This document shows, one piece after another, positions 23,739 to 51,498 of a stretch of 64,000 nt of DNA; the stretch's first letter is position 1; each line of letters opens with the position of its first letter. The stretch spans positions 16,306,001 to 16,370,000 of the forward strand of contig CM060733.1 in assembly GCA_030704615.1 (NCBI GenBank). The letters run 5' to 3'. Source of the stretch: Takakia lepidozioides. Lineage: Eukaryota; Plantae; Bryophyta. A program made the position numbers and the translations under genes. The notes beneath the pieces are model-generated. The model was not told where the DNA came from. It ran no database searches and worked only from the letters and a program-made list of their open reading frames with translations.

Positions 23739-24037
23739 CCTCGCTGACTGGATTACTCAATGGATCACGTCTTTGCTAACTGTACATACATCGAGTAAAT
23801 AGAGAAGTACCTGCATTGACATTCATTTTCAGCAGTAATTTACACCATGAATCTTGATCAGGATTGTGCTGCTATAGTCAACATTTCAAGAACCCCACCC
23901 CAAGTGGCAGACTGTCAAGAAGTTATGCCAGAAACTCATCTAGAGAGCTGGATACGAGCTTCACAAAAATTACCAGACTCCGTCATTTGGTATGTTTCGA
24001 GCTGTCAAGTGCAAGTTCCAGACTTCTTCATTTTACG

Positions 24038-25439: not shown

Positions 25440-26335
25440 GTGGTTGTATTTGCTGCAGATCATACCCACTACAGAGCAGCTGTGATTGAAGCAGGACCAG
25501 CTGGACTAGCAGTGGTGGCCACCTTGTTGGACACCGAATGTACACCCATCCTGTGGATTGATCCCCACTTCCAGGCCGGTCGCCTCTCCACGTACAAAGA
25601 AGTACCAAGCAATACCAAGGTGAAACTGTTTCAGCAGTTTGTGACAATTTTACCTAGCTTAGTGCAATTTCCTGACAAGGCTCTCTCTCCCTTTCTTGGG
25701 AGGGATCCTGACAGCGGGTGCCCTCTCTCTCTTGCAGTTGATGGTGAAGACTCTTATCCATGGCATATGGACAGTGGCTACATGCTGACCCCCTCTCACA
25801 TTCCAAAACGGGTGGCCCCTTTCGATACAATTGAAATAGTGGGAAGCAGCCAAGTTCAGCTGTGCTGGTGGCGCTCAAGAATCTGCGTGAATGTGAACAA
25901 CGACCTCAAAAGCTAATCAACTTTTCTGGTCAGCCTCTATTGTACGCAAGCTACATGCCAGACAACTGGATTTTGTTTGATAATACAGGGCTCAAGGGAG
26001 TGGCGGCTGACTGGGCCAGGGTGAATTTGGAAACAGAGAAATTGGAAAGGGAGAAGCTTCTAGAACGTGTTTGTGTGAAGGATATGTGTATCAAAGAACA
26101 GGAGGAGCTTTGGAAGAAATGTACCAAACTTGTAGGTGCAGTTGGGTATAATCGACACCCCTTACCCAAAATTTCAGTGAACAGCCACCAACTGACTAAA
26201 GTTGAGTATGATCCACATAGAGGGAAAATTGCTGATAGTCTTTTCAGATTTGGAACAGCATTTCCTGAGCAACAGTGGATCCCTATGGTAAGGAAGAGTA
26301 TGCTGACGTGGGATTATGGAAGTTCATGGAGTACT
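25440..26335 (+). pseudogene. FAD/NAD(P)-binding pyridine nucleotide-disulfide oxidoreductase-like gene, frameshifted and probably internally deleted
   Basis: AAVIEAGPAGLAVV (Rossmann), WIDPHFQAGRL..YKEVPSNTKVKLF, WILFDNTGLKGVAA, AVGY, FGTAFPE, then (frameshifted) DPYG...VGLWKFM. Confidence 0.7.
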
Positions 26336-29300
26336 CACTGGTTTGCAAAAGCTCATTCCAAACTTATTCAAAATAGTTTGAATATACTTCTTCTGACTTA
26401 AGTGTAAAGTACCCTTGTCCCTGTCTCGTTCAACTTGAATACCCATAAAATAATGAATGTCTCTAAGATCCGTCATATCAAATGTAGCATGTAAACGTTG
26501 TTTTGCATGTTTCAATGCTTCCACATCATTGCTGACTAAAATTGAGTCATCTACATATAGTGCAATGAGTACAAACTTGTCCTCTTTGAATTTAATGTAC
26601 ACATTACTATCTGCTGGAGATGCCACAAAACCTTCAAAGATTAAATAACCATTAAACTTCTGGAACCAGGCTCGAGGTGACTGTTTCAAGCCATATAGGA
26701 TTTTTATCAACTTACAGACCAAGTCTTCTTCTCCTGGAGCAATGAGCCCTTGAGGCCGCTCCATATAAACCTCCTCCTCCAAATCTCCATTTAAGAAGGC
26801 GGTTTTCACGTCCATTTGATGGACCTCCAGATTTGATAGTGCGGCAATAGCCAAAATAGTCATGATAGAAGATATCTTTGCAACAGGTGAAAATGTCTCA
26901 TTATAATCCACTCCTTCTCTTTGAGAAAAGCTCTTGCAACTAGTCTGGCTTTATACCTTTCCACTGATCCATCTGCTTTAAGTTTGAGTTTATAGATCCA
27001 CTTACATCCAACAGTCTTTCTCCCTTGTGGAAGTTTAGTTAGCTTCCAAGTACCATTCTTTAGTAAGGATGCAAACTCTTTATTCATAGCCTCTTGCCAT
27101 CTTGACGACTCTCTACAACTGAGAGCTTCCTTAAATGACATTGGCTCTTCATTTTCAACAAGCATTGTTTGTGACAAATCGAGAGATTTCTCTCTCTCAT
27201 GGACCTGCGAACTTGGATATCAAGTTGAGCCCTAGGTGCTTGTAGTTGAGGTTGAGCCACTTGAACATTTGCTGGAATATTACTTGGCTATGGTGTCTCT
27301 ATTTCCTCATCAGAGCCAGAGTCACAATCTTCGTCCATGTCCAAACCTAGATCCACATCTGATCCCTTCTCAGGCTCACCACCTCGAAGTGTCTTTGGTT
27401 TCCATGCTTCATTGAAAACCACATCAGGACTAACTAACAAGACTTTGTTAGCTAGATCAAACAACCGATAAGATTTACTGGCTTCCGAATAACCCACAAA
27501 AATACTTTCTCTTCTCCTTAGTGACCAGTCCAAACTTCTTCTGGTGTCCTTCCTGGCACAGCACTTGTAGGTACCCTGTTTAATACATAGTTGGTCGTTT
27601 GCACAACATCTGCCCACCATTTGTTGTCTAACCCACTATGCTTCAACATTGTCCTTGCTGCTTCTACCAATGACCGGTTCTTACGTTCAGCCACCCCGTT
27701 CTGCTCTGGGGTGTAATGAGCAGACAATTGATGCTCAATTCCTTCTCTCATGCAAAATTGAGCAAAAACGTTTGACTTGTACTCCCCTCCATTGTCAGAG
27801 CGCAATTTCTTGACTCGCTTCTCTGTCTGTGTTTCCACCAGAGACTTATAGATCTTGAACTTGTCTAAAACTTCACTTTTATTCTTCAGAAAATAAACTA
27901 GTGTTCTTCTAGACAAATCATCTATGAACGTCATAAAGTATTTTGCTCCTCCAATTGATATTGTTTGCATGGGGCCGCAAACGTCTGAATGTACAAGTCC
28001 AACAACTCCACAGCACGACTTCCTCCTCCTTTAGGAAATAAATGCCTATGTTGTTTGCCAAATATGCACTCTTCACAAAAAGAGGTTCCAACTGAGCAAT
28101 CAATATTGAAATCTTGAACCATGTTCTTAGAATGCATCAGACGTAGAGTTTTAATACTGAGATGGGCCAGCCTACGATGCCAAAGATCAACTCTTCTGTC
28201 TTTGACGATTAAGGCACTTTCAGATGCTTTATCGACTAAAGAAGCACACAACTTATACAAGTTACCTTCTCTCACCCCCTTCGCCACCACATCTCCATCT
28301 GTTGTCTTCAAAAGACAATAATTAGCATAAAACTCAAGTTGTAATCCAGAGTCAGTAACTTTACTCACTGACAATAAATTCTTGGTCAACCCTGGAACAA
28401 ATAACACATCATCTATATACTTCTTTCTTTCTTCTTGCATAAAACAAATCTGGCCTTGACCCTGAATTATGTGACTACTGTCGTCTCCCAAGTAAAACTG
28501 CCGAACAAGATCCCATTGTTTGTACTTTACAAACAGATCTTTGTTAGAGGTCATATGTTGAGAAGCCCCCGAGTCAATATACCAGTCATCAAGATCCTTT
28601 GAGAAAGAAGTAGAAAGAGCTGTAACAAATAATTTCTCACAATCAATACTATCAGCATCCTCCACTGAATGAGCTTGGGTATTTCCATCTCCCTTCTTCA
28701 TCTGCCCGTCTGTCATTCTCTTCCTACATTGCTTCGCCATGTGATCGACTTTCTTGCAATAAAAGCATTTACCCTTAAATTCTTTTTTCGTAGGTGTAAG
28801 AGAATCACTTGACAAACCATTTGATGATCCTTTTGTTGGTGTACTACTAAGACTCATATTGTTATTTTTATTTGCTTATGAGGTTCCTTTCTTTTTATTA
28901 AGACCTGATTTCCTTCCAACAAATAAAGCAACACTCTCAGTTGTCCCAACCCCGAAATCTCTTCGCCTCATCTCTTCTTGTAGTAGCATTCCAGTTACCC
29001 TTTCTATAGTCAACGCTTGCTGACTACTAAGAGAAATGACTAGGCTATCAAAAGATTCTGGTAGACTACCTAATAAGGTGACTACCTGATCGTCTACAGA
29101 CACAGGAGACCCTACCCCTGCCAATTGATCAATCAATGATCTAAAGTTACTAACATGCTCTGCTATAGATTCTGATTCAGACATTTTTAAACGGAGCAGT
29201 CGTCTTCTTAAATAAAGCTTAGAAGTAACATCTTTTGTTTCAAATACTGTCACTAAATGATCCCACGCTGCCTTAGATGTTGTAGCTTGACTAACGTGCA

Positions 29301-29541
29301 AAAGCTGAGAGTTTTTTAAGTTTAATAGGATTGATGCAAGTATTTTTCCATCTCTCTTCTCCCACTCTTTCACAACATTTTGATCTGTAGGAGCAGGCTT
29401 CGCTTCAGTCCCGTCTACTATGGACCAAAGATCTCTATCTAATAATAGCATTCGGATCTTAAGCTTCCAAATATGGAAATTTTCTCCATAAAACGTATCT
29501 ATTAAACGGAGTTTTCCCGAGTTCCTGACTACTCCAGCCAT
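26324..29541 (-). mobile_element. Ty1/copia internal region (gag-PR-INT-RT), degenerate, truncated before RNase H, no LTRs found
   Basis: gag 28876-29541; CFYCKKVDHMAKQC, WYIDSGASQHM, LWHRRLAH 27931-28857; RSDNGGEY..PEQNGVAER 27518-27970; YKARLVA, QMDVKTAFLNG, LYVDD 26324-27177. Confidence 0.93.
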
Positions 29542-31249
29542 GCTTACGAATTGATCTAGTTCTCTCTTAGAAACGACACTGTCTTTCCGCCTTGCTCTCT
29601 AAGTGGCTCTAATACTCGGCAGCCCCTTCATTGATGGTAAAAGGGATCTCGGGAGATCGAGGCCTCTTCTTCTTACCTTGTCAAGTCTATGGGATTTTAG
29701 GAAGTGTGACAGTACTTTTGACACATTTTTAGGGAAATGATATGATTTTTACATAAAAGCTTTCCTTTACTCTGTAACTCCTTCATTTCTTCTCTCTTGC
29801 TGCCTCTATATCTAAACATCTTTGAAAATTTCAAGGCCAAGCCTAAAGCCATGGCCCTTCTGGGGTCTTAACTGCAGGGCAGATCACACACACAGCATAC
29901 TGATGCTTGTGTGTAGGGCTCTCTAGAGGAAATCTGATTTAAGCCCAAACAAATTGTTAGTGCCCAGCAAACCAGGACTTGATTGGAGCAACGAAAACAT
30001 TCTTAACATGAGGATTTTGCAGTGGTGCCAGCAGCAATCGAACCTGTACAGATCTGTAGTCCTACTCGGTTCCATGAAATTCAAAGAGACAACAGGTCTT
30101 CTGGGAGAAAACATGCAGCTGCATCCTCAATCAGAGGTGATGGGGATATCAAGATTGTCCTGTTTTGAAGAGCTTCCCTAGTCATTCGACTGCAGACAAG
30201 ATTGTGGCACAGGTGTAGGGAGAATGCCCAATGAGCTGGAGACGGGAGATTCGTTTCCAGGCTCCGATCCAGACGTCTGCTAGCACCAGCCGTGGGACGC
30301 CCCATTGTCGATGAGCGCCTATTAATTATGAAAGTAAATTATGACTTGTCAAGCGTTGTCTGTTTCTAACTTCGACTTTCCAGGAATGGGCAGAAATACA
30401 TCATGTGCGATTTCACTGTATATATTTCCGATGCACAAGCTGCAGTAGAAGAGCATACTTCCCAGTCACATCTGGAAGAGCCCGTGTGGTGTAGACAGGC
30501 CTCCTCTTGGCGACCCCCCGGATATGCGTCAACAGCATGCATCCCAGGTGTACAAATGTGGCCCAGGATCATGCACATTTCCTAGGTAAGATTTCATTTG
30601 AATTATCTGATGTCGATTCCGGTCCGTGGATGGTGGTGGAGAAGCTTCGTAGTTGGGAAATGCCAAATGTAATCTGAGCTGTAGGCTGCTCCGAGGAAAG
30701 TTGTTTAAAGTTACACTGAGTTTCCAAAAACATCCCTTGATTTTCAGCTCCCCAGGTGAGGCAATTTGGAGCTGAAACTGCAGCCTGGCCGGCTAACTGC
30801 CCGCTTTCAAGAAAAACACGGAGATGATTTGGCAAGTCGGATCCGTATAGATTCATGATCCTGTATGTGTGTATTTGTTTTAATTAGAGAACACAAACCA
30901 GTTGAGCATTCATGAATGACGATAACCGGTCATTGATCCTGAATTCAATCAGAGCTGCGAGTTGAACGACGTCGAGGACCAAGAACCCAGACTTTGATCT
31001 TGCTGTTAATAGTGCCGCACCGCAACCAACGCTACCAGGAACTATCAGTCAGTGATATTGACGACTGAATATTTGGGGGATCTCATCATATCAAAGAGAC
31101 ATGCTTGCGTGAAACCGCCTTGTCAACAATGTTGACTATCCCAGCACAATCCTGAGGAAGATTCATGAATATCATTGCAGGTACTCGTGTCTATCTAATC
31201 CACAGTTAGCAAAGACGTGATCCATTGAGTACTTCAACTGTCAGCTAGA

Positions 31250-33567
31250 AGAATGACCGTGGGTTGGCACAAAAAATTTTGTGAGTCCTGAGGAGGACGA
31301 CCATCTGAAAGAAACAATTCGTGAACATCATCTGAACTCCAGGATCAATTTGATTAATTGAAGATGGTACCTGCAAGTTGTGCAGTACGCAAATTCTCTT
31401 CATGGTACAATATGTACAATGGGAAACTCTGTTTTCTAAATTTGGAGTTTCTAAGACTACAATTGTTTTGGATGGATCGACTCTACAGTGAAGTTCTGTA
31501 TACTGAAAGTAAGGGCCCTCTCTCTTTGAGAGAAATCCCAAGAATTGAGAAACGCAGATTCTATGAATGGCTGCAGCTCGCAGGCAAAGGTCTAGTTTAG
31601 TAGCGAGTCAAGTCGCTCCATCAAGTTACACCCATTCACTGAATTCGTGCAAGAAAAACAGTCTCCTTCAGATCGGTGGGGTGGCAGCTTACAATGGCCG
31701 AGTTCGGGCACTAGCAACTAGTAATCTAGCCGGTGGAATGCGACTTGGTCTTTGCGGGCACGCTGCCGTCATTCCCAGCGAGAACCTTGTACTTGTCCCT
31801 GCGAGTGAAGTTTGTGCACTGGAAACTCAGTGTCCCTGCAATAACCCTTTGGATGTAGTTGGCTACCTCCACCGATGTTTTTCCACCCGCACATGTAAGC
31901 TCCATAGGCAGTTGGTTCAAAAATGTAACCTCGTAGACAGGTCTTGGGTTCATGAAGAAGAAGAAAGGATCCATGCCCTTCCACCCTGTGGCGGTCGTGC
32001 CGTGGAACATGGACATTCTGTTGAACATCGCCACGGGGGCGATCTTGTCCGTCAGCTCCGCAAAAAGCGCTGAGAATCGTAGGAGAAATGGCTCCCGGCA
32101 TGTTGTTCCCTCTGGGCAGATGGCTAAGTCTCCTTCTTCCAAAAGCTTGCTGATGTTGGCAGCATCTTGCTCTCTGTTGCGAGTCAAAGCAACCGTCTTG
32201 ATTGGGGAAAGGGCCTCCGAGACACGTGAAATGGAGTATGTGACTGCTGTGATAGGTCGCCCGAGGGCTACCGACAGGAAGATGGGGTCCAACAAGGTCC
32301 GATGGGAGCAGATAAACAGGACTCCCTGCTTTCCATCCTTCACTGCAGGTGGGGGTGTTCCCGTGACCTTTACACGCACCCCGAGGGCAACGTAAGCGTA
32401 GTATGTCAAGGACATGGGGAGCAAGGACCCTGCAGCAATCCGAAGCACGGCAAGAAGGAAACCGATAGGCATCCAGACGAGGGTGAGAAGAGCGTTGAGT
32501 GGAGTAGGGCGTTGCACAAGCCGCCCGTCGTGGAACACGATCGGCTTCGGCAGCTCCTCCTTTTGCACAGCTTGTACCTTGTTGGCGGGCACCACGTAGC
32601 CTTCCTTGCACAGAGCCATGAAGGGGTGGTCAGTCTTGCGGTCGCCCAGGCCAACGTCCGGTGCATCGTCCCCGAAAGCTGCCTTCAAAGCAATTTCTTT
32701 CTTCACACCCACAAGGACACCGGGGGCTTTGAGGAAACCTGTTGCGCGCCCGTTCCTGGTCACCTCGATCTCGGACCCAAGCACCGCATCGGCACCCAGA
32801 TACTCCTTTGCAAAGGTCTCCACCATTATGCGGGGATTGGCAGTCAGAACATAGCGCTTCCCAAAGGAGGAAAACACACGCCATGTCTCTGGGTGCAGAT
32901 CCTCGCAGTAGAACTTTGGCAGAACCGCGCGCGCTACAGTCTCAATTTGAGTCACTTTGAGACCAGCAAAGGTGACAAAGACTAACACCTGGATCCCTGC
33001 TGCTTCTGAGACGAAGTGATAAAGGAACCAAGCAATGGGGGCGAAGAGGAGGAGGAGGAGGGAACGGAGAAAGCCGCCGGCCTCGAATGCCACCAGCATG
33101 AAGTAGGGAAATGAGCTCCGCCCTCTGACCAGGGTGCCATCCAAATCGGATATCACGGTCTGTTTCTCTCGTCCATCGGAGCTGCATTTCTCAATGTAAT
33201 CGAAAGGCTCCGGCCCAGATATCTTCGCCTTCGGACCCATGGTATTATGGTGTTGAGGAAGACCCGATCTGTGTGGGTAGTGCAGAGGCCGATGACGGAG
33301 TGTAGCTCAGTGTATTTGTCAGACACGTCGGAGAGAGAGAGAGAGAGATGAGGGTGGTGGTAGCGGGGAAGAGCGGGTGGGGAGGAAGGGAGGCGATGAG
33401 AGAGAGTGATGGTGTGAGGGAGTGAGCGCAGTGTGCGGGGTAATATACTGGGACACTGGTCAGTCAACCCTCGTTGACAAGGACCTGTGCTCTGGCCTGG
33501 CGCGTCCAACTTAGGTCTTATTATTACCTCGTCCGCCACCCTCTGCTTCTCCGGGTCCTCAAAGCTA
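31250..33567 (-). repeat. Right arm of the inverted duplication
   Basis: Reverse complement of 21421-23738. Confidence 0.95.
31726..33240 (-). CDS. GPAT: Second RAM2-like GPAT copy, 504 aa (AAG>TAG removes the last 5 residues)
   Basis: Translation identical to 21748-23277 up to ...SHSTG. Confidence 0.93.
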
Positions 33568-35850: not shown

Positions 35851-38800
35851 TTTGCTGTACATTTCAATCAAAGCCTACAAGCCAAGATATAACTATCTAC
35901 TGTATGAAGTGCATAGAAGCCATTGTTGTAAATGCATACACGGCAAGAAAATGAGAAACCATCTTTTAACAACATTACAACGAACATGCACAAATTTTAT
36001 TACAAAGTTGTGGAGGGACACAAAATGTCTGAAACTGTGAACATCACGAGACCCCCCAAAATGATGAAATTTGCATTTCAGTCACTAGAACTATCCCCTG
36101 AAACTTGTGCAGTATCATCGACGTAAACCCGAGCTCTGAGGTGCTTGTTGTGCTTTCGAGCACATGGGGGAGATAACATGAAACTCTGTTGACGAGCAAT
36201 GGCCTCCGCGTAGTCGGGTAGGATGTATGAACGTGGAGGGCTGCACCACAAGTCACTGTGAATAAAAGAGACGTCGACCAAAGGAATAGCTTTCAATACC
36301 CTGCCACCCAAAGAACCACAATTGCATTAGCCACCATTAATGGGAAAGGGGGGGCCGTTTCCGAGGGAGAAATCGGATGCTTACAGAAAAACAACTTACT
36401 CACATGCGAAATCGTCGTCCAAAACTTTGTCATCCCCTTCGTTGATTTCCACATGCACTATACCCTCCTGTTGTTGGGCGGCAGGTGCCGGCGCTGGCGC
36501 TTCCAAGTTATAGAGGAGGTCATTGAAAATGTCCGCATCCCCTTCCATACCAAACAAATGCCTCCCCGCTGCCTTGCAAGCATGGTACGAAGCTCCTGCA
36601 AGACATAGTACTCTTAGGACACATATAAACAAATTTTGCACCAAGAAGAAAACACCACAGCAGGTTCGGGGTGAAACCTGTGCCAAGAGTGAGGTCCACG
36701 ATACGTGCCCCCGGATGGGAACAAGTCTCCACAATTGTTTGAATAAATGCTGGGCTCTTCTCCTTGGCCCCTCTCCATGGTGTGCAGTTGGATTTTTGCA
36801 AGCATACATTGGAATCCACGTAATTGTAGTGCATGTCGTCCACCACTGGATCAAACTTATCGTTGATGAAACAACCTCCCCCATGAAGCCTGAACTCCTT
36901 CACTGCTGTGGGAGTTGAAGCAGGGTGCACTCTGACGAGGCAGACGGCCTCAAAAAAGGCGGGTCTACACACAAGACAACATGAGGCACATATTAGTGAA
37001 TCCAAAAAAATTCATCTGGAAAGAACAGTGCTTGCAACCTCTGAAAATGAGTGCGTCGACGCACTCATTTCTGCAGGGGTGAAATGGAACTTCAAATGAA
37101 GCAGGTAAGAGAAAGTCGATTACCATTTGTCCGGGACAGTCGCCCTTTGTCAAGTACAGGCTGTTCACACCATTCCACATTTTGATGATTTTCATCCCCG
37201 AGGCCTTGAGGTAGCTTGCAAGCTCATGGCGACATTTCGTATTGACCGACTGGATCATTACAAGAACCCATGCATCCGATAAAAAAAAATTGCAAAATGA
37301 AAAGACCCACCGCCAGTACCTCTCATCAAATGCATTCCATGTTGGGCAAGTGCCTGTGGGTAGAATGTCCGGTACTGGCAACCTATCCGGAATGTCCACA
37401 ATCACCATGTCGGCACAACATGGTTTCAGGGAACCATTGACCCAACACTGCCCTTTCGAAACCTGAAAACAGACAGACGGCAAAAATTAAATAACTATCC
37501 AAAAGGGAAAACAGTAAATGAGACAAACAATGGGAATTGGCTTATCGAGTCAAGGAATGCACACAGCTTGCCCCAAGTTCGAGAGGGTTCTCCAGCGTAA
37601 CCAGATTTTCTGCTTTCCATCATGGCAAGGAATGAATCATTGACAATCTCGCATTTACATTCTCGCTGGATTCTGGATAGGTGCTCCACTGCGTCGTATG
37701 GCTCAATCTTCCCCTTACGTTTTCGTTCCTTGTTTCCAATTGGGGGTCTGCGCTACCTCACCCCCCGCAGTCTCCCCTTGGGTGGCTTTCTCCTTCCCTT
37801 TGTCATTTGTACCATTTCTCTTTCCCTTCCCTCTCGCAGGAGTTTTGTTGGCTGCGGGTTCCTTCTCAGCGAGGTTTCGCAGATTCCTCTCATGCAATTC
37901 CTTGTCAGTAAGAGGGGCCAAAGACTCTGCATTGTCGTTCTGGTTCCGTGTCTACAACTCATACCAGGGGCAATCTGATTTCGGAATGTCTAGATACCAG
38001 TAGCAGTCTTTCAGATGATATCTCCCGTAGTCTCTGAGGATGGCTGCAATGTACATGGTCTGACTGTTAGAGGGGTCAGAGCACAAGTCGATGAAGGCAG
38101 GGTACTTACTGAGGTTTTTTCCCAGAATGAGCACGTTCTTGATATACCTACAAAACAAAAGAGGTACACTTTTAGACATTGAAGGCAAAAAAGCATATAC
38201 TGCAGCCCTCCCAAAATGCGTGCGTCGATGCACACAGTTTGGGGTGCACAAATACTTGAGCATTAGGCAACCGAAATACACTCACTAGTACCAATGCAAG
38301 AACATGAGAAAACAAAGGGTTCCATATGCAGAAAGATATCCCTTTCTCGGCAGACAGATATTCCATTCAGAGCTGCCAACGAAACAATGAAATCCATGAT
38401 GGAGGAGAGAACACATCTGAGTTTGTGGCTTTCCAAAACTGCGTGCGTTGGCGCACGCAGTTTTGCATGGCCAAAAACTGCCTGTCTACTGATTGCCAAA
38501 GATAGTTTTCAAACATAAAACAAAACTAATGAACCTGTATAGGACCCTCTTCATGGCTCCCTCCGCCCCGTACTGCTGGTCAAAGTCATTTGTGCGGGAG
38601 ATTCCTCCATCTCGGGAAAACTCTCTGAAGAAGCAGTTGCTCCAAGCAGTGGCCTTCCACTGCCTCAAGTAATCCTCCAGAGTGTCCTCGGGCACGGTCA
38701 TGGTAATTTTGTAGTCATAAAGCTGTTTCTCCAGCACCTGGTTTGCACGAGCTTTAATCTGCAGGTATTCATATGCATGCGTTAGAGTCCATTCATGGGA

Positions 38801-39889
38801 AGATATTCTCAGAATTTCAAGCAAAGAAAGTCCTTAAAAGTACGTGGCTCCAGTAGGTGGCTTTGTACAACCATGTATCAAGAACTTGGTCGTTGATGTG
38901 CCCGGTGTTCTCATCTCTTTCACCCCTAGGGAAGCAGTATGTATCCTTGACAGTTGGGTCAGAATTCCAAATCTCCAACCATTTCACTTTCTGGTCAGCT
39001 TCCACAGATGCAGTTGACAACCGGTGAAGCTTTTCCTGTGTCATCTCCGGTTTGGTGTTATTGTTCCAGTGGATCCTCACCTGATTAAGAAACTCGGGAC
39101 CAAAATCAGGGTCAACTATTCTCAGCTATTTCACGAAAGCGCTCATGAGCTTCTTCCGTATCTCATTCATCGTAAATTTCATGGCTTCTGCCACTCCCTT
39201 GGACGTCCTCATACCCTCCGGGTTTTTCAAATAGTGCTCCGCTTTTCCTCTCTCTCCAGCTTCAACTATTTCTTGCTGCAAAACGTAATCCGGAATGAGA
39301 TCACTTGTTACTGACAATCACAACAGACAATGGAAGGCCGGAGCGATGGAATACTTACAGTGTACATGTACTCCATGAATGTTTCCCTCGTTAGATTGTA
39401 CCAGGTATCTGACGTTTTTGATGTCAAACATTTCTTGAATGACTCCGCACGCAGGATGCTCTTGAATGAATTGAGGGGCATCTGGCCGATATTCTGGATC
39501 CTGAATAGTGTGTGAAGAAGGTTCATTGTCACATGGGCGGTTTCAGTTCCCCTGTCACATACAATGGTGTGTCGTCAGTGAGTGCTAAAAGCGAACAGAC
39601 AGTCAAGGAAAAAATGCGGACAATAACAAGTGAAGAAGACACTTACTTGTTAACGTCATGCATTGCCGTCAACAGTGCAGTGATGTTTCCCTTGCGATCC
39701 AGCACCATTGAGGCCACAGAATAGTGCCACTCCTCCTCGGTGCTATGATATCTCTCGATCATGTTCCTCCAGGCAAGCAATCGGTGGTTGCCATCCCAGA
39801 CATGAAACTTCTTGCCAGAGAAAGGTTGGGTGACGAGCCTCTTGCAAATGATAGATTCAAACTCCTCATTTATCTGTCGCCAGATAGGA

Positions 39890-40581
39890 TGTCGTGCGCA
39901 TACATATCGCTACACAACTACATCGCTATCCAAAACCACACAACACATGTGCACGCCACACACACTAGTATATCACTAGTCCACCACTAGTCCAACCACT
40001 AAGGTATAACTAGTCAGTCACTAGGCTGCCACTATGCTGTCCACTATGGCAGTCACTAGTCCACACAATCGATAAAGACAGAAGAAAGAAGAGGACATAC
40101 AAGCACAAGCTCACAAGCTGAAGCATAAACTCATGCATATATAACCTCATCACTCAAATACAAGTCAAACCAAGTGCACCCCACGCCATGGAGAATCCAC
40201 ACTACGGCGCCATAGCTAGGCGCGGTGAGGCTCAACTCGAGAAAGATGAGCCTCCCGCGCTTGCCGTGAAGATAACCACTCCAGGGCCTAAATCTGCCTT
40301 GACCCCTGGATTGACACTTGGGCCAATCCCAAATGTCAATATGTAAAAACTAGCTATTTTCTAGCTAGTTTCACACTAGTGGTAAAATAACTTGACAGCT
40401 GTCGTGCGCATACATATCGCTACACAACTACATCGCTGTCCAAAACCACACAACACATGTGCACGCCACACACACTAGTATATCACTAGTCCACCACTAG
40501 TCCAACCACTAAGGTATAACTAGTTAGTCACTAGGCTGCCACTATGCTGCCCACTATGGTAGTCACTAGTCCACACAATCG
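39890..40581 (-). repeat. 3' terminal repeat block Y-gc-X-Y (Y: 40400-40581 and 39890-40070; X: 40071-40397)
   Basis: tgtcgtgcgcatacatatcg..ccacacaatcg occurs twice; gataaaga..aaataacttgaca matches 49092-49416. Confidence 0.92.
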
Positions 40582-40837
40582 CCCCCCTAGCTGGTGCTTC
40601 GGTCCCTCTAAGTCCAGGTAGCCATAAGATGTGATAGTGACCATAGCCTGACTAAGTCTTCCACCACTGTCCCTACTACACTCAAACTCGATAGATCAAG
40701 AGGCCGGGTGCGAGAGTTGCCCCAACATTAGTCGCCGTCTTGCAACCTGTGAACTTGAGCTTGGGATCTCATGTATTGACTCCTATGAGCTTGGCCTCCC
40801 ATGTCTTGTTAGTTGCCTCCAGTCATGTCCACTGCCA

Positions 40838-41060
40838 CTATCCCAAGCAGTGTGGACACAACCAATCTCCATCAGGAACCCTCTCAAGAGGTGGTGTCAA
40901 GCATCCCATATGCCAACCTCTTGAGCATCGATCACACACCAGCATGGTGGCTGCCGCTTTGGCAGACCCACAGAACATGCACCTCAAACCTGCAGGTACC
41001 ACTGCCAAGTTTGGGTCAACTCTGCCATCGACATTGGGAAGGTGACATGGCGCACAATTA
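40838..41060 (-). pseudogene. PHD finger at the integrase C-terminus
   Basis: CMFC..MLVCDRCSRGWHMGCLTPPLERVPDGDWLCPHC (C4HC3). Confidence 0.92.
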
Positions 41061-41118
41061 CGCACATGGTCCTTCCAAGTCATGCCGAACAAGAGGGACA
41101 TCTTCAAGACACTCCAAT

Positions 41119-42624
41119 TCAGGACATGAGCTGGACATAGTGTCCACAATTGAGTACAGTAACCAAGATCAGGACCCCTGAGGGCAACACCTCTCGAACC
41201 CTCAGAATAACACGCCCTGCATTGACATCCATGGTCGTAGGAGCAGTCTGCTGCAAATAAACATAGTCACCAGGGCTAAACCTCCAAACCCCAGGACAAT
41301 ATCCTCCACCACGTATAGTGGCATACCTCAACGTATCACGGTGCTGTGCAATGGCAAGGTTCTCAAAAGCCATGGGCATGACTTTCTTAAACAACTCTGC
41401 ACGCTGATCACATGCACGTACCCACACGTCCGGATCGTCAAGGTTAAGGACTTGAGCAGTGTCCTTACGAATGGCTGCAGGCAAATCCGGCTCTCGGCCA
41501 AAGAGAAGGAAATATGGTGAGAAGGAGGCAAGTGATGCTTGTTTGCTGAACCTGTAGCCCATGGCTAACCAAGGAACCTGAAGATCCCAATCTCCTAGGT
41601 GTCCCTTCTGCAAGCCATACTTGCGCAAACCCCTCTTCACCGTCTGGATGACTCTCTCTGCCAAGCCATCGGCCTCAGGATGATCCCGAGAAGTGGTGCG
41701 GTGGTCTATCAAGGCTTTATCACACAAAGCCTGAAACTCCCCCAAGAACTCTCTCCCTTGGTCCATGAGTACCTCAGCTGGAGCACCAAATCGGCTAAGC
41801 ACACGATCCAAGAATGCATACGCAGCCCCCTCACTAGCCTTGTCAGGCAATGGAACCAACTCAATCCACTTGGAGAAGTGCTCCACCATCACCAACACAT
41901 ATCTGTGGTGGCGCATAGTCAGTGGCAACGGTCCTGCGAAGTCAAGACTCCACCTGTAGCCCAATCCCATGATTGGTAAAGGATGCAACTGTGGTGTAGG
42001 GGCGTTGAATGAAGCACGCACCCTGTCACACACCATGCACCTAGCCACGAACTATTGCACCTCTGTATGCATACCACGCCACCAATACTGCCCTTGCAGT
42101 AAACTGTGAGTGCGTCGCACTCCAAAATGCCCCAACTCCTCATGGGCATGCCGCACTAACCGTGCACGCTGTGTGGGGTGAGGCACAATCCTCACCCGAC
42201 CATCCTCCCACACTCAAAAGTAGGTGTATCCCCTCCCACTTGAACCTCTTGGCTCGTTGCAGGATCCGATCCCTCTCCCTGGCAGTCACAGTGGCTGCCG
42301 TGTCTCCAGTGCGGAGGTAGTCCAACACAACTGAATCCTCATGTATATCTTTGGCACCACCTGGCTCATCACTAGCCTCAGGGTCCTCAGACACTCTGTC
42401 TACAGTCATCCCTGCTGGAGGTCCAACCTGACCTCCCGATGCCAAGATACACAAAAATGCAGATGTGTGCCATCCCGGCACCATCTCCTCGTCCGTCTCA
42501 CCATGCCCCGAGCTCCAGTGTCATCCTGCTGGCTCGTGCATGGATTGCGACTCAATCCATCCGCATCCTTATTGACCAAACCCGGTCGATGCACAACCTG
42601 AACATGTCTCTCATGCTCCTCCAC
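41119..42624 (-). pseudogene. Gypsy RNase H C-terminal end + integrase (HHCC, DDE core)
   Basis: VVHRPGLVNKDADGLSR; HEELGHFG..YW..CMVC; WSLDFAGPLP, MDQGREF, HPEADGLAER, SPYFLLFGR, FSPGDYVYL. Confidence 0.92.
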
Positions 42625-42788
42625 CGTAGCACGAGAGGCAAAGCAATTCCTGTAAGCCTCAGGAACCGCCGTATACGTCGTCTCTCTTCTCTAATGACAA
42701 TAGGTCCAATGTCAAGCTCCCAATTGCCCTTTGTAACTGCAACCTTAAGTCCAGCAGACTTAGAGGTAGAGGACGCGTCCCGTGGTTG

Positions 42789-44360
42789 CTATGCCGCAAC
42801 CTCTTGAGCAGTACTCCCTGCCTGTTCAGTCAATGATAAGGCCTCATCCTGCCCCATCATCTCATCATTGAGAACCTCTTCAACCCGAGAAGAATCCCCA
42901 ACCTCATCCATCACAGCTGCCTTGGCTGCCAACTCCCTCTGAATCTCGAGCACCTCCCACATGTGCCATGGATGTCTACACCCCGTGGTCCTCGCCGGCT
43001 CGCCCCCACTCGTTGCCTGTACCGTCTCGGTAGGCAGAGAGACTGTAAAGGGAAGTGCACTCCGCACTCTACGTTGCTCAGCCATAGCCAAGTTGATAAT
43101 CCAGGTCAAGCAATTGAGATCCATTGCTTGCCCCAACACCTGACGACGTGATGCCTCAAAAAGAGACGGCACCGCCGTGGTACCAGTGGTAAAACCCATT
43201 GCCCACTCACGCTCGTCAACATTAGGCTCCACTAACTGCTGCAACTGAGCATCCCACAGGAGGCCAGGTCCACTATCCTGGAAAGCATGCGATCCTGGGA
43301 AGCTGAGCAGTGTAGGTAGTGCTACTCGTGGTTAACCCACCTTGTTGACCACTGCCAAAGGCGAACGGTCATCGTGTCTCACACGTTGAGACTGCCTCCT
43401 TGTGTCCAAAATGCTATCCACTGTGAGATGTGCTGGCCGCTGCACCCCATCAAATGCACGCTTGAGCAGTGTGGGTGGCATCAAGTTAGTCCACCATAGC
43501 CGTGGACGATGAGCCCGTGATCCCACTGCAGCTGCATCCAGCAGCACTACTGACCCAAGCCACGTCTGGACTTGATGCACACTGGCCATCACCCTGGCCC
43601 AAGAATCGCCCATCAGTGGCACATTCTCCAAGATGTATGTTGGCGATACAGCTTGATGAAGCTGCAAGTGGTGCAAAATCCGCACCATCTCCCAAAACAG
43701 ACCCGTCCTCGAGTCTCGCAATCCATTGTCATGCCCGGCTGATGAATGCCCTTGGCAGGGCCAACCTGCCACTACCAGATCAATGGAGCCAACCTGCTCC
43801 AAATCCGGCGCCCCCAGCAAAGAAATGTCTGCTGGCAAGGCCTGCTGATATCCACGAACTGCAGACACCGGCAACAACTCAGGGTACTGCTGCACCATCT
43901 GAGCAACATGACGGAGTGAGACGCGTCGTGCAGTCTCATCCCTCTCCACATACAAGTAATGCCTTACCCGCACACCTGCCTGTAGCATAGCAGCCAATCC
44001 GGTGCTGATCCCACCAAACAAGTCCAGAAGACAAATGCCTTCATCTGGATACTGCCACACAATAGGTGTGGTGTCCAATGGAGACAACTGAGGTGGTCCT
44101 GGTGCAATCCCCGCACTCTCCTCCTCTCCTGACGGTACAAAAGCCTCCACCCAGGCTTGTTGCACCCGTTGATCAGCATCCCGCTGCAAATCCTTGCTCG
44201 TGCCCCATAATGGAGTCTGAGCAACCATGGTAGGCAACTCCGCCATACCATACATGTCATCCTGCTCTCCCGGAGGTGGCACATCCTCTGAATGAGCGTT
44301 GCCCTCAAGCAACTCTCTAGGCCAACTCACTGCCGCTGTGAATGCTGCTAGTGTCGGCAT
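42789..44360 (-). pseudogene. DNMT3-like C5 cytosine methyltransferase domain inside pol (one in-frame stop at 43332-43334)
   Basis: Motifs I LLDLFGGISTG, II YVERD, IV VAGWPCQGHS, VI YILENV, VIII AHRPRLWWTN, IX/X EREWAMGF..RRQVLGQAMD; ORFs 43332-44360 and 42789-43244 are in the same frame. Confidence 0.92.
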
Positions 44361-46941
44361 CTTGCCTCGCTGGGCAACCGCAACTCCTCATATGAACGTC
44401 ACAGGGAGCTGCACACGCCGGCCCTCCCCTGACTGCCATCTAGGCCTATAGGAAGCTGACTCCTCCCAAAAATCCATGGTGAAGCCCATGGGGTATAATA
44501 CTGCCCCACCAACCAGGACATCGTACGAGACCGCGTCTGTCACAATGGCCTTGGCTCGCATCACTGAGCCATCTATAGGATGATCCGGCTATAGTCTGAT
44601 AGCCAACTCACGCCGTGTCATGCCTCGAGCCTGCTCCAATCCTCCCAGAGACGTCTGTATCTGGTAAGGACAAGGCTCCATATCCGCCTCCGTGAGGCCC
44701 AAGCCTGCAACAGCAGCTTTGCCCAGCATCAATGGCTGAGCTCCCGAGTCTAACAAGACCCGCAGTGGCCGGTACCTCTTGCCTGCCGGTCCACTCAAAC
44801 AGAAAATACCATCCTGGTTGTCTAACAAGACAACTCCGGGTGTCACCATGGCGCGCTCAATGGCTGGCCTAGCTGGCAGCTCCATCAACCTGACAGCTGC
44901 AGCTTGCCAAGGCGCCGCCGTGGCAGTCTTGACCCTCAAATCCGAGGATCCCTCCGGTACTACACCTCCCACTATCTCCGCAGAAGATGAAGTAACCTCC
45001 ACACTCTCACAGAGTGTAGCTGCCAGCCTGAACACCTCAGCTGGTTTTACCCCAGCGTCGCAATCATGGTAGCCGAGAACAATGGAGCCTGGCACACAGA
45101 TGTGGCCGCTCCCAGCAGCACACTAGCTGCCGTAGTGTTGGCAACACTAGGTAGTGGTGCTACCCGTGTAGCTCTCCCCAATGGCATAGTAACCTCCGCC
45201 TCGGTAACAGTCGGGCGAGAACTAGGTGCCATGGATGGCGTCGACACTGTCTCTGCCAATGTGAATGACTGAGGAAGCCTAGCCTGACGGCTTGCCTCCC
45301 CACGTTGTGGATCCAACTCCACCTCTGCACCTCGTGGCTCAGGAACTTGTGCTGTTCCTCGAGTCACGGCTGCAGCAGACTTGACCTGCACTAGTGGTAG
45401 TGCTGCTCCACACATGAATCCCATGTCTCTCATATCTCCTCCCTTAGGAACAGGAGGTGGACCATCCGGCATTGGAGCCGGTACCACCTGAGCTGTAGCC
45501 ATGGCAGCGAGCCTTTGTTCTAGCTGCTGAAGCCGGTTGGCCATGCCTTGGCCACCACCTTGACCTCCGCGTCCTTGGCCATGTTGAGCTTGCCCTTGGC
45601 CTGCACCTCGTGCCTAGCCACCTCGTCCTCTCTGGGCTGCTCCACCTCGCCCCCGGCCACCATTGTTCCCTTGGAACTGGCCTGGGTGCAACTCAGGATG
45701 CAAACCATAACACTGGGCCTCTCCATGCCCGTGCTTGCCACAATGCCCACACTGCAACTGTGCAGGCTGTGCATATGCTAGCCCTTTGCCTTCCTCTAGG
45801 CAATCCTTCTTGACATGGGGTCCTCCACATGTCCAACACACCACATCCGCCCGTTGTTGGCCTGCAAATGAAGGGAGAGACCCCTGCATCTGAGGTTCTC
45901 TCTGTCCTTCCCTGGGCTTCACCTAAGCCCCCTTGTTGCCTTGAGCACGTTGAGGTAGTGGTTGGCTAAGCACCACTACCCCGTGGTGTCTCCTTAGCAA
46001 ATCCCACCATGACCACTCGTTCCTCCACCATGTTGAGCTCTATCCGCTCTGCCAGCAAAAACACATTTGCTAAGGTGGGTTGGGCCGCTTGTAGGAGAGT
46101 TGCATCCCGCACCCTTCTCCTCAGCTCCTTGTCCAATATCCCATACCAAAATTGGACTGCCTGAGCTTCCGTAACCCCTTGGGTTACATTTATCAAGCGC
46201 CTCATGCAAGTGAAAGCCTCCCTCAAGCTCTCAGTCGGCTTCCGTTGGAACTCTTGCAAGCTCCGCAACTTCTCTGTCCTCACCCCTTGGTAGTTCCCTC
46301 TTAACTCTTCGAAGAACTCCACAACAGGGTTGAAGGCAGGCACCGCCACTGGTGCTGGTGCAGCAGTAGCTTGGGTGGACGTCGTAGCTATGGTATCACC
46401 AGTCCCACTGCTGCTTGGCTGAAGCTGCCGGTGCAGCGGCAGCTGTAGCCAATGCCCTCGTGGCTCTAGTGCCCCTAGTGATGGAGACATAGTCGGGTGA
46501 CCAATACATCCTCCACTCCTCGATCTCAACCTCATGCCCCCGCCCGAACTCATGGTAATCATCCATAGGCGGCCCCTCAAGGTGCTGAAACAACCCCTTC
46601 CATACCATGAAAGGCGTAAATAGTTGTGGATTGCGCATTTGCTGCAAATCACACCAACTATCAAACTCTTGGATAAAATCATCCAACTCAATGGTGCCCA
46701 CCGCCCCAGAGTACCTTCGTGGCCCCTTGGTAGCTCCATATATCTCCTCCATTGTGTCCCACAACAATGACAAGGAAACAACTTGCACCGCCGGTATGAG
46801 TCCTCCTAATTCACAATCCGAATTAGAACCTTCCGTAGAAGACACAAGAGGTGAAGGTGGCCTAAACCGCACACCTCGTCTCGTGTACCCATTAGTATCG
46901 TTAGTGCTCAAACCGGCACTCTCCCCAGCAACTAGTGGCAC
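44361..46941 (-). pseudogene. Gypsy gag (two CCHC knuckles) and aspartic protease
   Basis: FQRKPTESLREAF (gag), CWTCGGPHVKKDC and CGHCGKHGHGEAQC, VLLDSGAQPLML..YDVLVGG. Confidence 0.88.
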
Positions 46942-47509
46942 CTCCGTGTTGACAAACTGTCACTCAACCGGTCATGAACATGTCTCTAACCCCCTCTCCA
47001 CAAGGTTACCGGGTAGAGAACCTGTTGCAGCTTATGGTTTGGAATACTAGATTCCTAACATAGCCTACACCTGCACCTGCATCCACCGCAAGCACTCCTA
47101 TGGTTGGCTGGTCATCACCTCCAACCTCACCACAGGAGAAACAATGATGGTCTGACTGGTCATCACCCCAGCCTCACCATCGACAGCATGCTCTAGGACT
47201 GGCCGGTGATCAAATCCGGACCAATCACCTATAAAAACAAGTGCCCACACAAAACTAACATGGCGCACAGTCAAGCATGCAGGTGTGGGGGGGATCCAAA
47301 CACAAGAAATCAGAACGACAACTCCCCCACACCAAAAACAACTCCACGGTGTTGCTCCTGCAATGACACCCCAGCCCAAACCCGGACTGACTCTTGCCTC
47401 CACCTACGGAAAGGTCTTGGCCTAATGAGAGGGTGGAAAACTACAAGGAAGAGAAGCTAAAGCAATGCCTAACCCCAGCATGCTCTCATCCCGTCCAACA
47501 GTTGGAATC

Positions 47510-48565
47510 TGTCGCCAGTCAGTCCGCTTGTCAGTCGCCAGTCTGCTGGTGAGTCCACTTGCCAGTCTACCGGACTGAGTCAGTCTGCTTGCCAATCGCC
47601 AGTCCGCTCGTCAATCACCGGTCTGCTGGTGAGTCCACTCGCCAGTCTACTGGACTGAGTCAATCCGCTCGCCAATCACCGGTCTACTGGTGAGTCCACT
47701 CGCCGGTCTACCGGACTGAGTCAGTCCGCTTGCCAATCGCCAGTCTGCTCGTCAATCACCGGTCTGCTGGTGAGTCCACTCGCCAGTCTACCGGACTGAG
47801 TCAGTCCGCTGCAGAGCTGCAGAGAACCAAAAAGCAAGTGGAAGGAGCAGGGCTGCCCACAGCCTCTTCTTCATCAGTCGACTCAGTCTCAGGAGAAGCT
47901 GGAATGGCTTTATCACCAGCCCCCTTACATCTGGGGATCCAGTCCAAAGGTAAGGGAAAAGCCTCTCCAAACACGCCACTAAACTCAATGGCAAACAACC
48001 AAGCCCTGCTGGCTCCCAGCCCTTGTGAGCACTCATTCAAGCACTCTCCTTGGCCATAGCATCTGTCTTAGAGCCTATTCCAGCCCCCTACACCTGCCAC
48101 TTCAAGAGCCATGCTCTACCTAGGCTTGGGGTTGAAACCTCAACTCACATATGCCCTACAAGTGGTCTTCTTTCACCCAAGTGGGAACCAGCCCTAGCCC
48201 TTCCATTCTAGCTCTCTAAAGCTTGAAAACAAAAGCCTCAATGGGCTGAAGGCATGCTCCACACATGCCCCACTCTCACCATGAGAGAATCAGCTCTTTT
48301 GCTTCATTTCTTGCACCCACAAACCTGAAAATACAAGCTTCAGCAGGCTGAAAACATGCTCCACACATGCTCTACAGGGCAACCAGCCCCTTCCTTCCTT
48401 TCTTGCACTCCCAAACCTGAAAGTACAAGCCTTCAACAGGCTGAAAGCATGCTCCACACATGCTCTACAGGGCAACCAGCCCCTCCTTCTTTCTTTCTTG
48501 CACTCTCTCCAAGCTTGAAGATGGCAGCTTCAACGAGCTGAATACATGCTCCACACATGCAACCT
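47510..48565. repeat. Two tandem repeat clusters in the gypsy 5' leader
   Basis: ggtgagtccactcgccagtctaccggactgagtcagtc about 4 times (47510-47810); ggctgaa..catgctccacacatgc 4 times (48230-48565). Confidence 0.85.
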
Positions 48566-49091
48566 CTTCACACAAGAGGTATCAGCCCCCTATCTTGGCT
48601 CCTTGGCTCCTTGATGCTCTCTAAGACAAGACTAAGCACTCCACAGCCCTTGCCACTCCTGAAACCCTAAGGCTTACATTTCCAGCCCCAAGAGACTCCT
48701 CTTGTGGTGCAAGAGCTCTTCTTCTTCCAAGCTCTGAAACCCTAGGTGCACATTCCATGGCCTTGCCGCACATCTTAGCTTTTGTTCTAGCCCTACTCTT
48801 GCCATGACAAGAGCCCTCTCAATGCTGAAGCTCGAGATTGAAACCCAATCTCCACATACTCCACAAAGTGCACTGATTTGCCCCAGCCAAATCAGCCCTT
48901 TCGCTTGGTCTTACAATCCTTCACACAATGAAAGCTCGCATTCCCAAGTCCAGTTCTCAGCTTTGCCACCAAGCCACTCCATGGTGCTCCTTGCATAACA
49001 ACCTGGTTTCTCTCATTCTCAAGCAAAAACCACAAGTGCTACAACTAACTCGAACCTGGCACTCACAGACTCGGGCTGATCTTTCTCGAGT

Positions 49092-49416
49092 GATAAAGAA
49101 AGAAGAAAGAAGAGGACATACAAGCACAAGCTCACAAGCTGAAGCATAAACTCATGCATATATAACCTCATCACTCAAATACAAGTCAAGCCACGTGCAC
49201 CCCACGCCATGGGAATCCACACTACGTGCCATAGCTAGGCGCGGTGATGCTCAACTCGAGAAAGATGAGCCTCCCGCGCTTGCCGTGAAGATAACCACTC
49301 CAGGGCCTAAATCTGCCTTGATCCCTGGATTGACACTTGGGCCAATCCCAAATGTCAATATATAAAAACTAGCTATTTTCTAGCTAGTTTCACACTAGTG
49401 GTAAAATAACTTGACA
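49092..49416 (-). repeat. 5' terminal repeat X of the gypsy element
   Basis: Near-identical to 40071-40397; Y is not adjacent. Confidence 0.92.
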
Positions 49417-51498
49417 AGGATCCCAGCCTCCAACAATGGACTCGTCCACCAACACCTCTCTGCCAACGGAGTCCGCCAAGGAGACGTAAAAACAGATTGA
49501 CCCTCTACGTACCCATGGCAAAAATCACGTTCCAACTTTTGAATGTCATTCATCAGAGCTGGTCGAACAAAGGGCATGGAGATCAAACGACATAGGGGTA
49601 TCATTATTTTTCCCCCAGGGACGCCCATGGCCTTGATGACTTGGGCAGAATTCACTTTGGAGAATGAAAGCAGATCTTTCGCTTTGTCTTCATATGACCT
49701 GCCATCGTCCTCCTCCTCAACAACCACCAGTTCCTGCTCAATCACTTCTTCCTCGACCTGAGTAGCACCTTTCATTTTCTTTGTCTGCACTCAAAACGAT
49801 ATATTATGAATGTAAAAGACTTGCCAGAAATTGCGTGCTTCAACGCACGCAATTTTCTACCCTCTGAAAGGTACTCATTTCTTTGCCTATTTCATACCCA
49901 ATGTCAATCTACTCTCTTGCATCAAACATTTAATCTAATCTCGCTGTAGGCTGAAAGGTGAGTGCGAGAGAACCTCCAGAAACTGCGTGCGTTGACGCAC
50001 GCAATTTCTGGGGGTTCTCTCACACTCACTTTTCTGCCTATTCATGGCTTCTGTCGCAGTTAACACAGCACAGCTGAGAGAAGGTCATAGAGAGAACATT
50101 CAGAAATTGCGTGTGTTGACGCACGCAATTTCTGGAGGTTCTCTCTATGACCTTCTCTCGGCTGTCGAACTCTAATCGAACTACTTGGGATGGTACAACC
50201 ATTGTGCAATGTGAAAGTCTCTCCTCCTATGCAGTACATGAAAAGTGAGAAGTAGGTCACACCCGGGTTTGGTTGTTATGCATTGCCTGCATCCCTGTGG
50301 TCTTACTCTAAATGATCAAGCATAAAAAAGCAGAAGAGATGGCAAGAAAAATGTGTGCGCCACCGCACGTAGTTTTCATGCCCTGGAAACTTGACAGAAA
50401 ATGGCAAGTAAGAGAATCACCTGAGGTCCTTTGGCCGACGAACTCCCAGCTGCCTTTGATGTGGCAACAACGGCGGTCGTCCTCCCAGTTTGGGCAGCCT
50501 TCTTAACCTTTGGCGTCGCCTCCTCCTCCACAATGTTCTTCCCCTTCGGCGTGGATTCCTTTGCAAGAGCGTCTGCCTCGTCTGTGTCCATAGAGTCTGT
50601 GTCGTCCTCTGACACAGTTTCGTCCGCAACTTCATCAGGAGTTGGCGGCTGGTCCTCCCCCGCCATGTGTTTGGTTTCCAGGGCTGCGCTCTCCTCTGCG
50701 ATCTCCTTCAGTGTCATGTTCAGCTTTCGGCCTTTCATTCTCTCTCTTGCCTTCTTCCTCTCTCGCGCTGAAGTAAAAAAGAATGACTGTCTTCTAGGCC
50801 TTCCACTCTCTCGCGCGGAACTCTGTCTCCTGCTACTCTCCAGCTTGAAAAACTACGATCTACTGGAATGAGAGACGTCGTGCGATGAGTAGCAGCCGGG
50901 GCATCGCTCTCGGCGGTTATACATGTATTCACTGCATACGTGTCCCCCTCCTAACGGCACACTCGTCCATTCTGCGGTGGCTGCCGTCTTTCATTATGGA
51001 GGTATGGCCATCGCATGGATTTGATTCGGATGGATGACTAATTTCAGTAGATTTTTTGGATTCTCCCAGATCAACATCTTCCATTCGTTCGACGCCGATT
51101 CGTCTTAAACCCTACACTCAATGCATTGTCGAGTTCCACGTAGCTGAACACCTTGGGGTGGCATGGGATGTTGGTCCCCGCCGTCATTTCACATGGGTCT
51201 GTAAAGGCAGATAACTGCTTAATAACTGTTTTATGAACTGTTTTGACAACTGTTTCTGAAAGGCTCTTTAACGGTATGTCAGCTTTTAAAATAGGTCTTG
51301 ACTGACCCTTCCATAACGGTTTGGGACATACATGACGAGTTGTCCTTTGCCGACCTCGTTAGTAAAGGTGACGGACTTTTAGGTTTCGGTCTGAAATGTA
51401 AAGCATGAGAAATGTAATCCCCACTATTGTTTGTAACAAGAATCCGCACAGAAGTTGTGGCTTCCGCACTTTTGCGAGGGAATTTCTTTTGCAGCAAC

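Follow-up and report, generated by a model that had tools for sequence, protein, structure and literature searches.

A bryophyte Gypsy retrotransposon family that combines split terminal repeats with a DNMT3-like methyltransferase domain and a PHD finger

What purpose does a cytosine methyltransferase serve inside a retrotransposon, and how does such an element enter the genome when its terminal repeats are split? We addressed these questions in a stretch of 64,000 nucleotides (nt) from the bryophyte Takakia lepidozioides (assembly GCA_030704615.1, contig CM060733.1, positions 16,306,001 to 16,370,000 of the forward strand), hereafter the window, whose numbering is used throughout. The window holds a Ty3/Gypsy element in which a DNMT3-like domain lies between the protease and the position of the reverse transcriptase (RT), and in which a PHD finger follows the integrase. 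Judged from its sequence, it appears to represent a land-plant version of KnitGypsy-Dnmt3, described from Klebsormidium nitens (de Mendoza et al. 2018, PMC5890265; this and the other articles are cited from excerpts). We consider it probable that the element belongs to a bryophyte Gypsy family, defined by the DNMT3-like domain, the PHD finger and the split repeats, that likely primes its own reverse transcription, packages its DNMT with Gag and integrates through an internal repeat junction.

To characterize the methyltransferase, we compared its sequence and predicted structure with those of known families. A preliminary description of this locus had reported a complete set of C5 methyltransferase motifs with the catalytic PC and ENV intact, and this was borne out, as DLFGG, GWPC, ENV, RxR and two C-terminal motifs are all present. 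A 15-row profile matched DNMT3A (E 1e-20) ahead of a DRM-type entry (4e-10) and M.HhaI (2e-7), and the structure predicted for the open domain of locus L001 (predicted local distance difference test score, pLDDT, 88) gave its best fold matches to DNMT3A/B. By these profile and model comparisons, the methyltransferase is DNMT3-like, non-rearranged and conserved across the family: PC is conserved in every row covering that position except L050, and EN in all rows. The stop at 43332-43334 is private to the window copy, since nearly all contig depth differs within that codon. Ratios of nonsynonymous to synonymous substitution (dN/dS) of 0.13 (L031/L032) and 0.17 (L001/L005) indicate that the domain is under purifying selection; ratios of 0.35-0.41 in two pairs of decayed close copies speak against this, and synonymous sites were saturated in five pairs, including comparisons with the window. 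Phage-type methylases gave 30 weak matches (27-43%) in viral contigs, which were not used.

We next asked how widely this combination occurs. A protein search with the methyltransferase (E <=1e-10) yielded 27 matches, comprising 16 named as Marchantia, one as Calypogeia, one as Sphagnum and nine without a name, and a search with the integrase yielded 234 proteins, with Klebsormidium, Riccia, Marchantia, Pleodorina and Tetrabaena among the best 120 listed. Relatives are thus found in Marchantia, Calypogeia, Riccia, Sphagnum, Klebsormidium and chlorophytes. Among 146 proteins there are two domain orders, one with protease and DNMT before RT and the other with DNMT between RNase H and integrase (L041, L044-L047, L049-L053, P0025 and P0084, one of them named Pleodorina). 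In a 45-row DNMT tree, the two orders fall on the two sides of one branch (support 100/98), which suggests, from this topology, either an old relocation of the domain or two captures. The preliminary description had proposed phylogenies against Klebsormidium elements and host enzymes. A quick 43-row integrase tree joined the Klebsormidium proteins P0053 and P0034 to the side with DNMT between protease and RT, with a Shimodaira-Hasegawa-like approximate likelihood ratio test (SH-aLRT) support of only 80; P0053 was left out of the DNMT tree owing to its short cover, and host DNMT3 and DRM were included in neither tree. A one-off captured host gene, absent from other copies, had been named as the finding that would overturn the description; instead, the distribution of the domain supports a DNMT3-like domain that is family-wide in a land-plant Gypsy element.

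The copy in the window is dead, with stops, frameshifts and a deleted RT, and the family is abundant in the host genome. Contigs of one sequencing run that match the element number 83,916, a count that gives no copy number. As described earlier, the methyltransferase follows the protease and precedes the RT position. The protease (with DSGA), methyltransferase and start of the RT region share a common frame; this frame is, however, broken by four stops (44589-91, 44388-90, 43332-34 and 42789-91), and two deletions have removed RT together with most of RNase H. Contigs of other copies diverge from the window at 42602 and 42632, continuing into RNase H and RT sequence. The order gag, protease, RT, RNase H and DDE integrase fits Ty3/Gypsy (with RT deleted in the window) and is complete in L032, L006 and L022. 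The long 5' untranslated part also carries tandem repeats of 61 bp (47517-47810) and about 100 bp (48177-48560).

We defined the ends of the element by comparing the two copies of a segment of ~17 kb that occurs twice in the window (1-16907 and 36630-64000, 96-99% identity). The second copy carries the retrotransposon and the first is the empty site, with a single AGGA near 3237-3241; the first copy also lacks about 0.9 kb nearby, and 181-bp tandem arrays lie in both copies. The insertion spans 39890-49416 (9,527 bp, minus strand), with outer ends TGTC...GACA and a 4-bp target-site duplication (TSD) AGGA. The region first described, 40838..45095, thus lies within an element that is larger and whose repeats are split. 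Its layout is A1-internal-B1-GC-A2-B2 rather than one with ordinary long terminal repeats (LTRs), and A1/A2 and B1/B2 have diverged alike, by 2.2% each (7/324 and 4/182). The TG..CA ends and 4-bp TSD are as expected for Ty3/Gypsy LTR retrotransposons. This group is also characterized by a pair of full-length, identical LTRs delimited by a primer site and a purine tract; the window element lacks such a pair, as its repeats are split and its purine tract stands in front of B1 instead of the TG end. Other loci share these features: L022 has the layout of the window element with unrelated repeat sequence and its own TSD (AAGG), L006 retains B1-GC-A2, the GACA-GC-TGTC junction is identical in L022 and L006, and L032 carries the variant GACA-GT-TGTC. 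A short form, A-internal-B, was seen in L029 and L034, each with a 4-bp TSD, and L009 and L013 end after B.

The sequences that flank the internal region point to a mode of priming. Immediately after A1 lies a 13-nt stretch with perfect complementarity to a site in the middle of A (chance ~5e-6). Complements of differing sequence, 17 nt in L019/L021/L022 and 16 nt in L032, extend this arrangement to three subfamilies including that of the window, and TATA-like boxes lie ~26 nt upstream of the inferred self-primer in L019, L022 and L032. A purine tract occurs at the same position as in the window in L006, L009, L013, L022, L024, L029 and L034, and L032 has a G7 tract at a like place. Tf1/sushi and the plant element Tcn1 have a primer site complementary to their own 5' repeat (PMC4600332, PMC6317226), and Tf1-like self-priming of this family is likely on these sequence signatures. 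Of 13 ends tested, seven had a complement of at least 10 nt at the expected place. Several results count against this reading: three of the 13 ends had offset or off-site complements, three had complements of 8 nt or less, and a duplex test was passed by four of six, with failures in L029 and L034. No set of purine tract, junction and self-primer was found in eight chlorophyte-type loci, most of which lack ends. The distant relative L060 has a TCA-GC-TGT junction after a G7 run and no self-primer complement.

How could such an element come to have its attachment sequence inside its repeats? In the model that we propose, RNA would start in the middle of A and, as in Tf1, serve as its own primer: its first 13-17 nt would anneal to the site immediately following A1, and reverse transcription would begin there. 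Plus-strand synthesis would be initiated at the purine tract preceding B1. With the primer site and the purine tract as its limits, the repeat of the complementary DNA (cDNA) would be B-GC-A, and the cDNA would read [B-GC-A]-internal-[B-GC-A], so that its ends would not be TG..CA and the attachment site would be internal. The cDNA ends would then be joined, as a circle or in repair after insertion, and integrase would cut the internal CA/GC/TG junction; a cut at the left-repeat junction of joined cDNA would give exactly A1-internal-B1-GC-A2/B2. The short form A-internal-B may derive from a one-repeat circle or from later recombination. To our knowledge, integrating end-joined or circular cDNA is not a route that LTR elements use as a rule. 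If the ends are joined, A2/B2 is expected to be a repair joint, and the joints do differ among the three readable insertions: nearly exact in the window, short of a few bases in L022, and still holding ~11 nt of the primer site in L017/L018, members of the L022 subfamily. Taken alone, this route through the internal junction seems to us reasonably probable. Weighing against it, only these three A2/B2 joints were readable and L017/L018 are internally rearranged. Moreover, a circle would hold two equal junctions and a mirror form, A/B-GC-A-internal-B, is therefore expected; this form was sought and was absent from the 13 readable 5' ends (11 distinct insertions). Rapid collapse by A-A recombination, or protection of one junction, may account for its absence.

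The missing mirror form would be explained by a splint like that of DIRS or PAT elements, in which a whole-element transcript would use B1-GC-A2 as an internal template to regenerate and join the ends to a circle, integrase would open the new junction and B2 would be inherited. The layout is that of the split repeats of DIRS-type elements, a likeness also pointed out for KnitGypsy-Dnmt3 (PMC5890265). Such a splint predicts neither the primer site right after A1 nor the purine tract right before B1, however, and it does not predict A2/B2 joints that vary within one subfamily and retain primer-site sequence; we regard it as unlikely. A more trivial explanation, that the odd ends or the DNMT are an accident of the window copy (a nested insertion, a misassembly or a one-off gene capture), draws on the heavy rearrangement of that copy. 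It is refuted by L022, in which this layout recurs with a separate TSD, and by the adjacency of DNMT and protease in 27 proteins or loci of several lineages; contigs of other copies also cover the element deeply and evenly, leaving this explanation a negligible chance.

The position of the methyltransferase relative to the stop that follows it bears on how much of it would be made. We collected 70 loci and used the 32 in which RT follows DNMT to count stops. A stop lies between the two domains in 30 of the 32, with DNMT otherwise in the RT frame, and in 28 of the 32 the stop is followed by CARYY in the RT frame, 38-50 codons upstream of the RT match; after merging seven duplicate pairs, this holds for 22 of 25 distinct insertions, mostly of one subfamily. 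The background rate of stop+CARYY is 0.81% (84/10,376 stops), and the plant read-through consensus is stop-CARYYA (PMC5397192). L028 and L048 have the stop motif with one letter altered, and in L032 open frames of 1369 and 1047 codons are separated solely by that stop. Given stop+CARYY at this place, DNMT is likely made at Gag levels and likely travels with Gag rather than Pol: Gag-protease-DNMT would be translated in bulk, and RT-RNase H-integrase-PHD through read-through of the leaky stop. The earlier view of a DNMT embedded in pol would then hold only for the read-through product, whereas in most land-plant relatives DNMT ends the Gag-protease open reading frame (ORF), with a conserved stop before RT.

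Against a leaky stop, stop+CARYY occurs in some frame in 9 of 51 control stretches, DNMT and RT share a single frame without a stop in L060/L061, P0040, P0055 and P0137, and the commonest context, CAA CCC ATG, lacks the final A of the consensus and puts a start codon on offer. Pol might accordingly be made past the stop by splicing or re-initiation: in the largest subfamily ATG comes directly after the stop context, and annotated Marchantia and Sphagnum models, whether RNA-based or ab initio, fuse DNMT to RT with the linker skipped. The ATG is missing, however, in the window, L001, L032, L054 and L059, all of which retain CARYY, and the linker is in frame throughout with a single stop, which makes this route quite unlikely. 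Separately, in the distant relative L060/L061 DNMT-RT-RNase H-integrase-PHD forms one frame of 1908 codons that overlaps an upstream frame of 2027 codons, without a leaky stop.

The preliminary description had also placed a C4HC3 PHD finger after the integrase. Both domains were recovered in that order, the PHD standing in place of the chromodomain of chromoviruses such as Tcn1 and Tf1/sushi, although the two lie in different frames in the window copy. The best relatives of the PHD of solved structure are CHD4, PHF12, KDM5A/B, ATXR5 and PHF21A, most of which read unmethylated lysine 4 of histone H3 (H3K4). Readers of H3K4me3 carry a tryptophan two positions before the PHD histidine; the residue at that position is glycine in 88 of 92 PHDs of the family. 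On both counts the PHD resembles readers of unmethylated H3K4. The PHD is common to the whole lineage, and a PHD finger in a Chlamydomonas Gypsy element has already been published (PMC9940879).

What the two domains do for the element is the weakest step of our proposal, in which DNMT would act inside the particle to methylate newly made cDNA and the PHD would bind unmethylated H3K4, favouring non-promoter chromatin. Alternatively, DNMT may leave element DNA unmethylated: it would bind nucleic acid, DNA or RNA, within the particle or have RNA or the DNA of the host as its substrate, with the integration model kept. The observed-to-expected CpG ratio of the element (0.46) shows depletion no stronger than in a nearby Copia element (0.45), and the KnitGypsy-Dnmt3 enzyme of Klebsormidium, the only DNMT3 of a Gypsy element to have been assayed, showed no methylation in yeast, a result that counts against our proposal and that its authors call inconclusive (PMC5890265). 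Catalytic PC and EN motifs are, on the other hand, retained in both domain orders, and related DNMT3s of dinoflagellate DIRS elements methylate CG (PMC5890265). We judge this alternative doubtful, with a minority chance of being right. The fullest form of our own proposal is improbable as a whole: an old green-plant Gypsy lineage would have moved its attachment site inside the repeat and would integrate joined or circular cDNA, and its Gag-level DNMT3 would methylate the CAGCTG junction and shield it from the element's own integrase. If true, each full copy would still carry one unbroken attachment junction, whose sequence CAGCTG is a symmetric CHG site, and DNMT3 and integrase would resemble a restriction-modification pair, which would account for the cutting of one of two junctions.

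Comparison with known systems places these features. PAT and Ngaro are DIRS-type tyrosine-recombinase elements with split direct repeats. DIRS-type elements share with the window element the A1-ORFs-B1-A2-B2 layout, a methyltransferase domain and a likely circular intermediate (PMC5890265); unlike them, it has a DDE integrase, a protease, a 4-bp TSD and TG..CA ends. No tyrosine recombinase was seen among the 11 ORFs scanned, and an rve integrase and a TSD are present instead. KnitGypsy-Dnmt3 shares its Gypsy domains, its non-rearranged DNMT3-like domain under purifying selection and, according to the legend of Fig. 4c, DIRS-like repeats, for which the available text gives no mechanism (PMC5890265). 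The K. nitens protein P0053, which we liken to the published element without equating the two, has the order protease-DNMT-RT-RNase H-integrase and is 41% identical over 176 amino acids of the window DNMT. The window element differs from KnitGypsy-Dnmt3 in its land-plant host and in that most land-plant loci have a conserved stop between DNMT and RT, whereas the published DNMT is placed in the pol ORF; a PHD (the term has 0 occurrences), self-priming, a purine tract and an integration route go without mention in the text available for that element (PMC5890265). Self-priming, here a sequence signature only, is shared with Tf1/sushi and Tcn1, which are chromoviruses with ordinary LTRs, in contrast to the PHD, DNMT and split repeats of the window element (PMC4600332, PMC6317226). 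Gypsy-7a_cRei of Chlamydomonas is a Gypsy element with a PHD finger, alike by description only; its left LTR is shorter than the right one by the latter's final 8 bp, perhaps the same asymmetry on a small scale, and DNMT is not listed in its legend (PMC9940879). Troyka elements (CG..CG ends, 3-bp TSD, animals only; PMC12440569) were ruled out by the TG..CA ends and 4-bp TSD. In the literature outside subscription journals and Repbase, we found no land-plant account of a DNMT3-bearing Gypsy element or of this integration route; an excerpt of a 2026 preprint speaks of "streptophytes (Gypsy-DNMT3)", possibly including land plants (10.64898/2026.05.21.726589).

Table 1. Features of the retrotransposon in the window, in order of position.
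Feature	Position	Strand	Basis or remark
Target-site duplication, left copy, AGGA	39886..39889	.	Sequence comparison with empty site
Repeat B2, 182 bp, element end ...GACA	39890..40071	-	4/182 differences from B1
A2/B2 joint	40071/40072	-	Putative site of joined cDNA ends
Repeat A2, 326 bp	40072..40397	-	7/324 differences from A1
Internal junction GACA-GC-TGTC, palindrome (element end + GC + element start)	40394..40403	.	Predicted integrase cut site
Repeat B1, 182 bp	40400..40581	-	Repeat comparison
Polypurine tract AGGGGGG, immediately before B1	40582..40588	-	Sequence
PHD finger, C4HC3, end of pol; out of frame with integrase in this copy	40847..40981	-	Pfam E 8.7e-12
Integrase: HHCC zinc finger, D-D-E core, one stop	41164..42213	-	Pfam rve E 8.3e-14
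Start of RT region, 30-nt RT remnant (42603-42632), RNase H tail	42508..42788	-	Sequence comparison with other copies
Family-wide stop, read-through-type context TAG CAA CCA	42783..42791	-	Stop codon 42789-42791
DNMT3-like C5 cytosine methyltransferase; PC near 43760, ENV near 43628	43068..44042	-	Pfam DNA_methylase E 3.6e-13
Aspartic protease, DSGA near 44750, stop 44589-44591	44400..44830	-	Pfam E 0.0035, below curated cut-off
gag, two zinc knuckles, three frames, stops	45050..46752	-	37-78% identical to Marchantia P0003
Primer-binding site, 13 nt, complement of mid-A site, not tRNA	49079..49091	-	Sequence
Repeat A1, 325 bp, element start TGTC...	49092..49416	-	Repeat comparison
Putative self-primer (predicted RNA 5' end) inside A1	49254..49266	-	Sequence
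Target-site duplication, right copy, AGGA	49417..49420	.	Sequence comparison with empty site

Finally, we characterized the neighborhood of the element. The retrotransposon splits a multi-exon-like gene of the duplicated segment (36399-39909 and 49398-49790, minus strand). Its DGNHRL motif we take to be ParB-like, and VDIPD and DLTLGTG downstream presumably resemble an amino-methyltransferase; Pfam named none of the 11 ORFs in the interrupted segment. An intronless GPAT (RAM2-like) gene is present in two inverted copies (21421-23885 and 31128-33567) that show no difference over 2328 nt; a Copia element lies between them, at ~26300-29600. The GPAT protein is 81% identical to one of Marchantia polymorpha, and the other 119 listed matches lie at 65-73%, with land plants as the named ones; 118 of the 120 listed matches carry land-plant or plant-transcript labels or are unnamed, in agreement with the land-plant setting first described. 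A PiggyBac-type transposase has an open frame of 727 codons at 17866-20049 (plus strand; Pfam DDE_Tnp_1_7, E 1e-77), and a scan of the window with ARAGORN gave no tRNA gene.

The end structure of this family points to a DDE integrase that acts on joined cDNA at an internal junction. Elements of this kind would escape LTR finders; they are annotated as hypothetical genes and so inflate counts of host DNA methyltransferases. The purpose of retrotransposon-borne methyltransferases has been a question since 2018 and has so far been studied only in algae that are hard to handle. Marchantia polymorpha has many annotated copies (16 of the 27 methyltransferase matches), and long-read genomes, methylomes and mutants exist for it; the purpose of the methyltransferase therefore becomes testable in a land plant.

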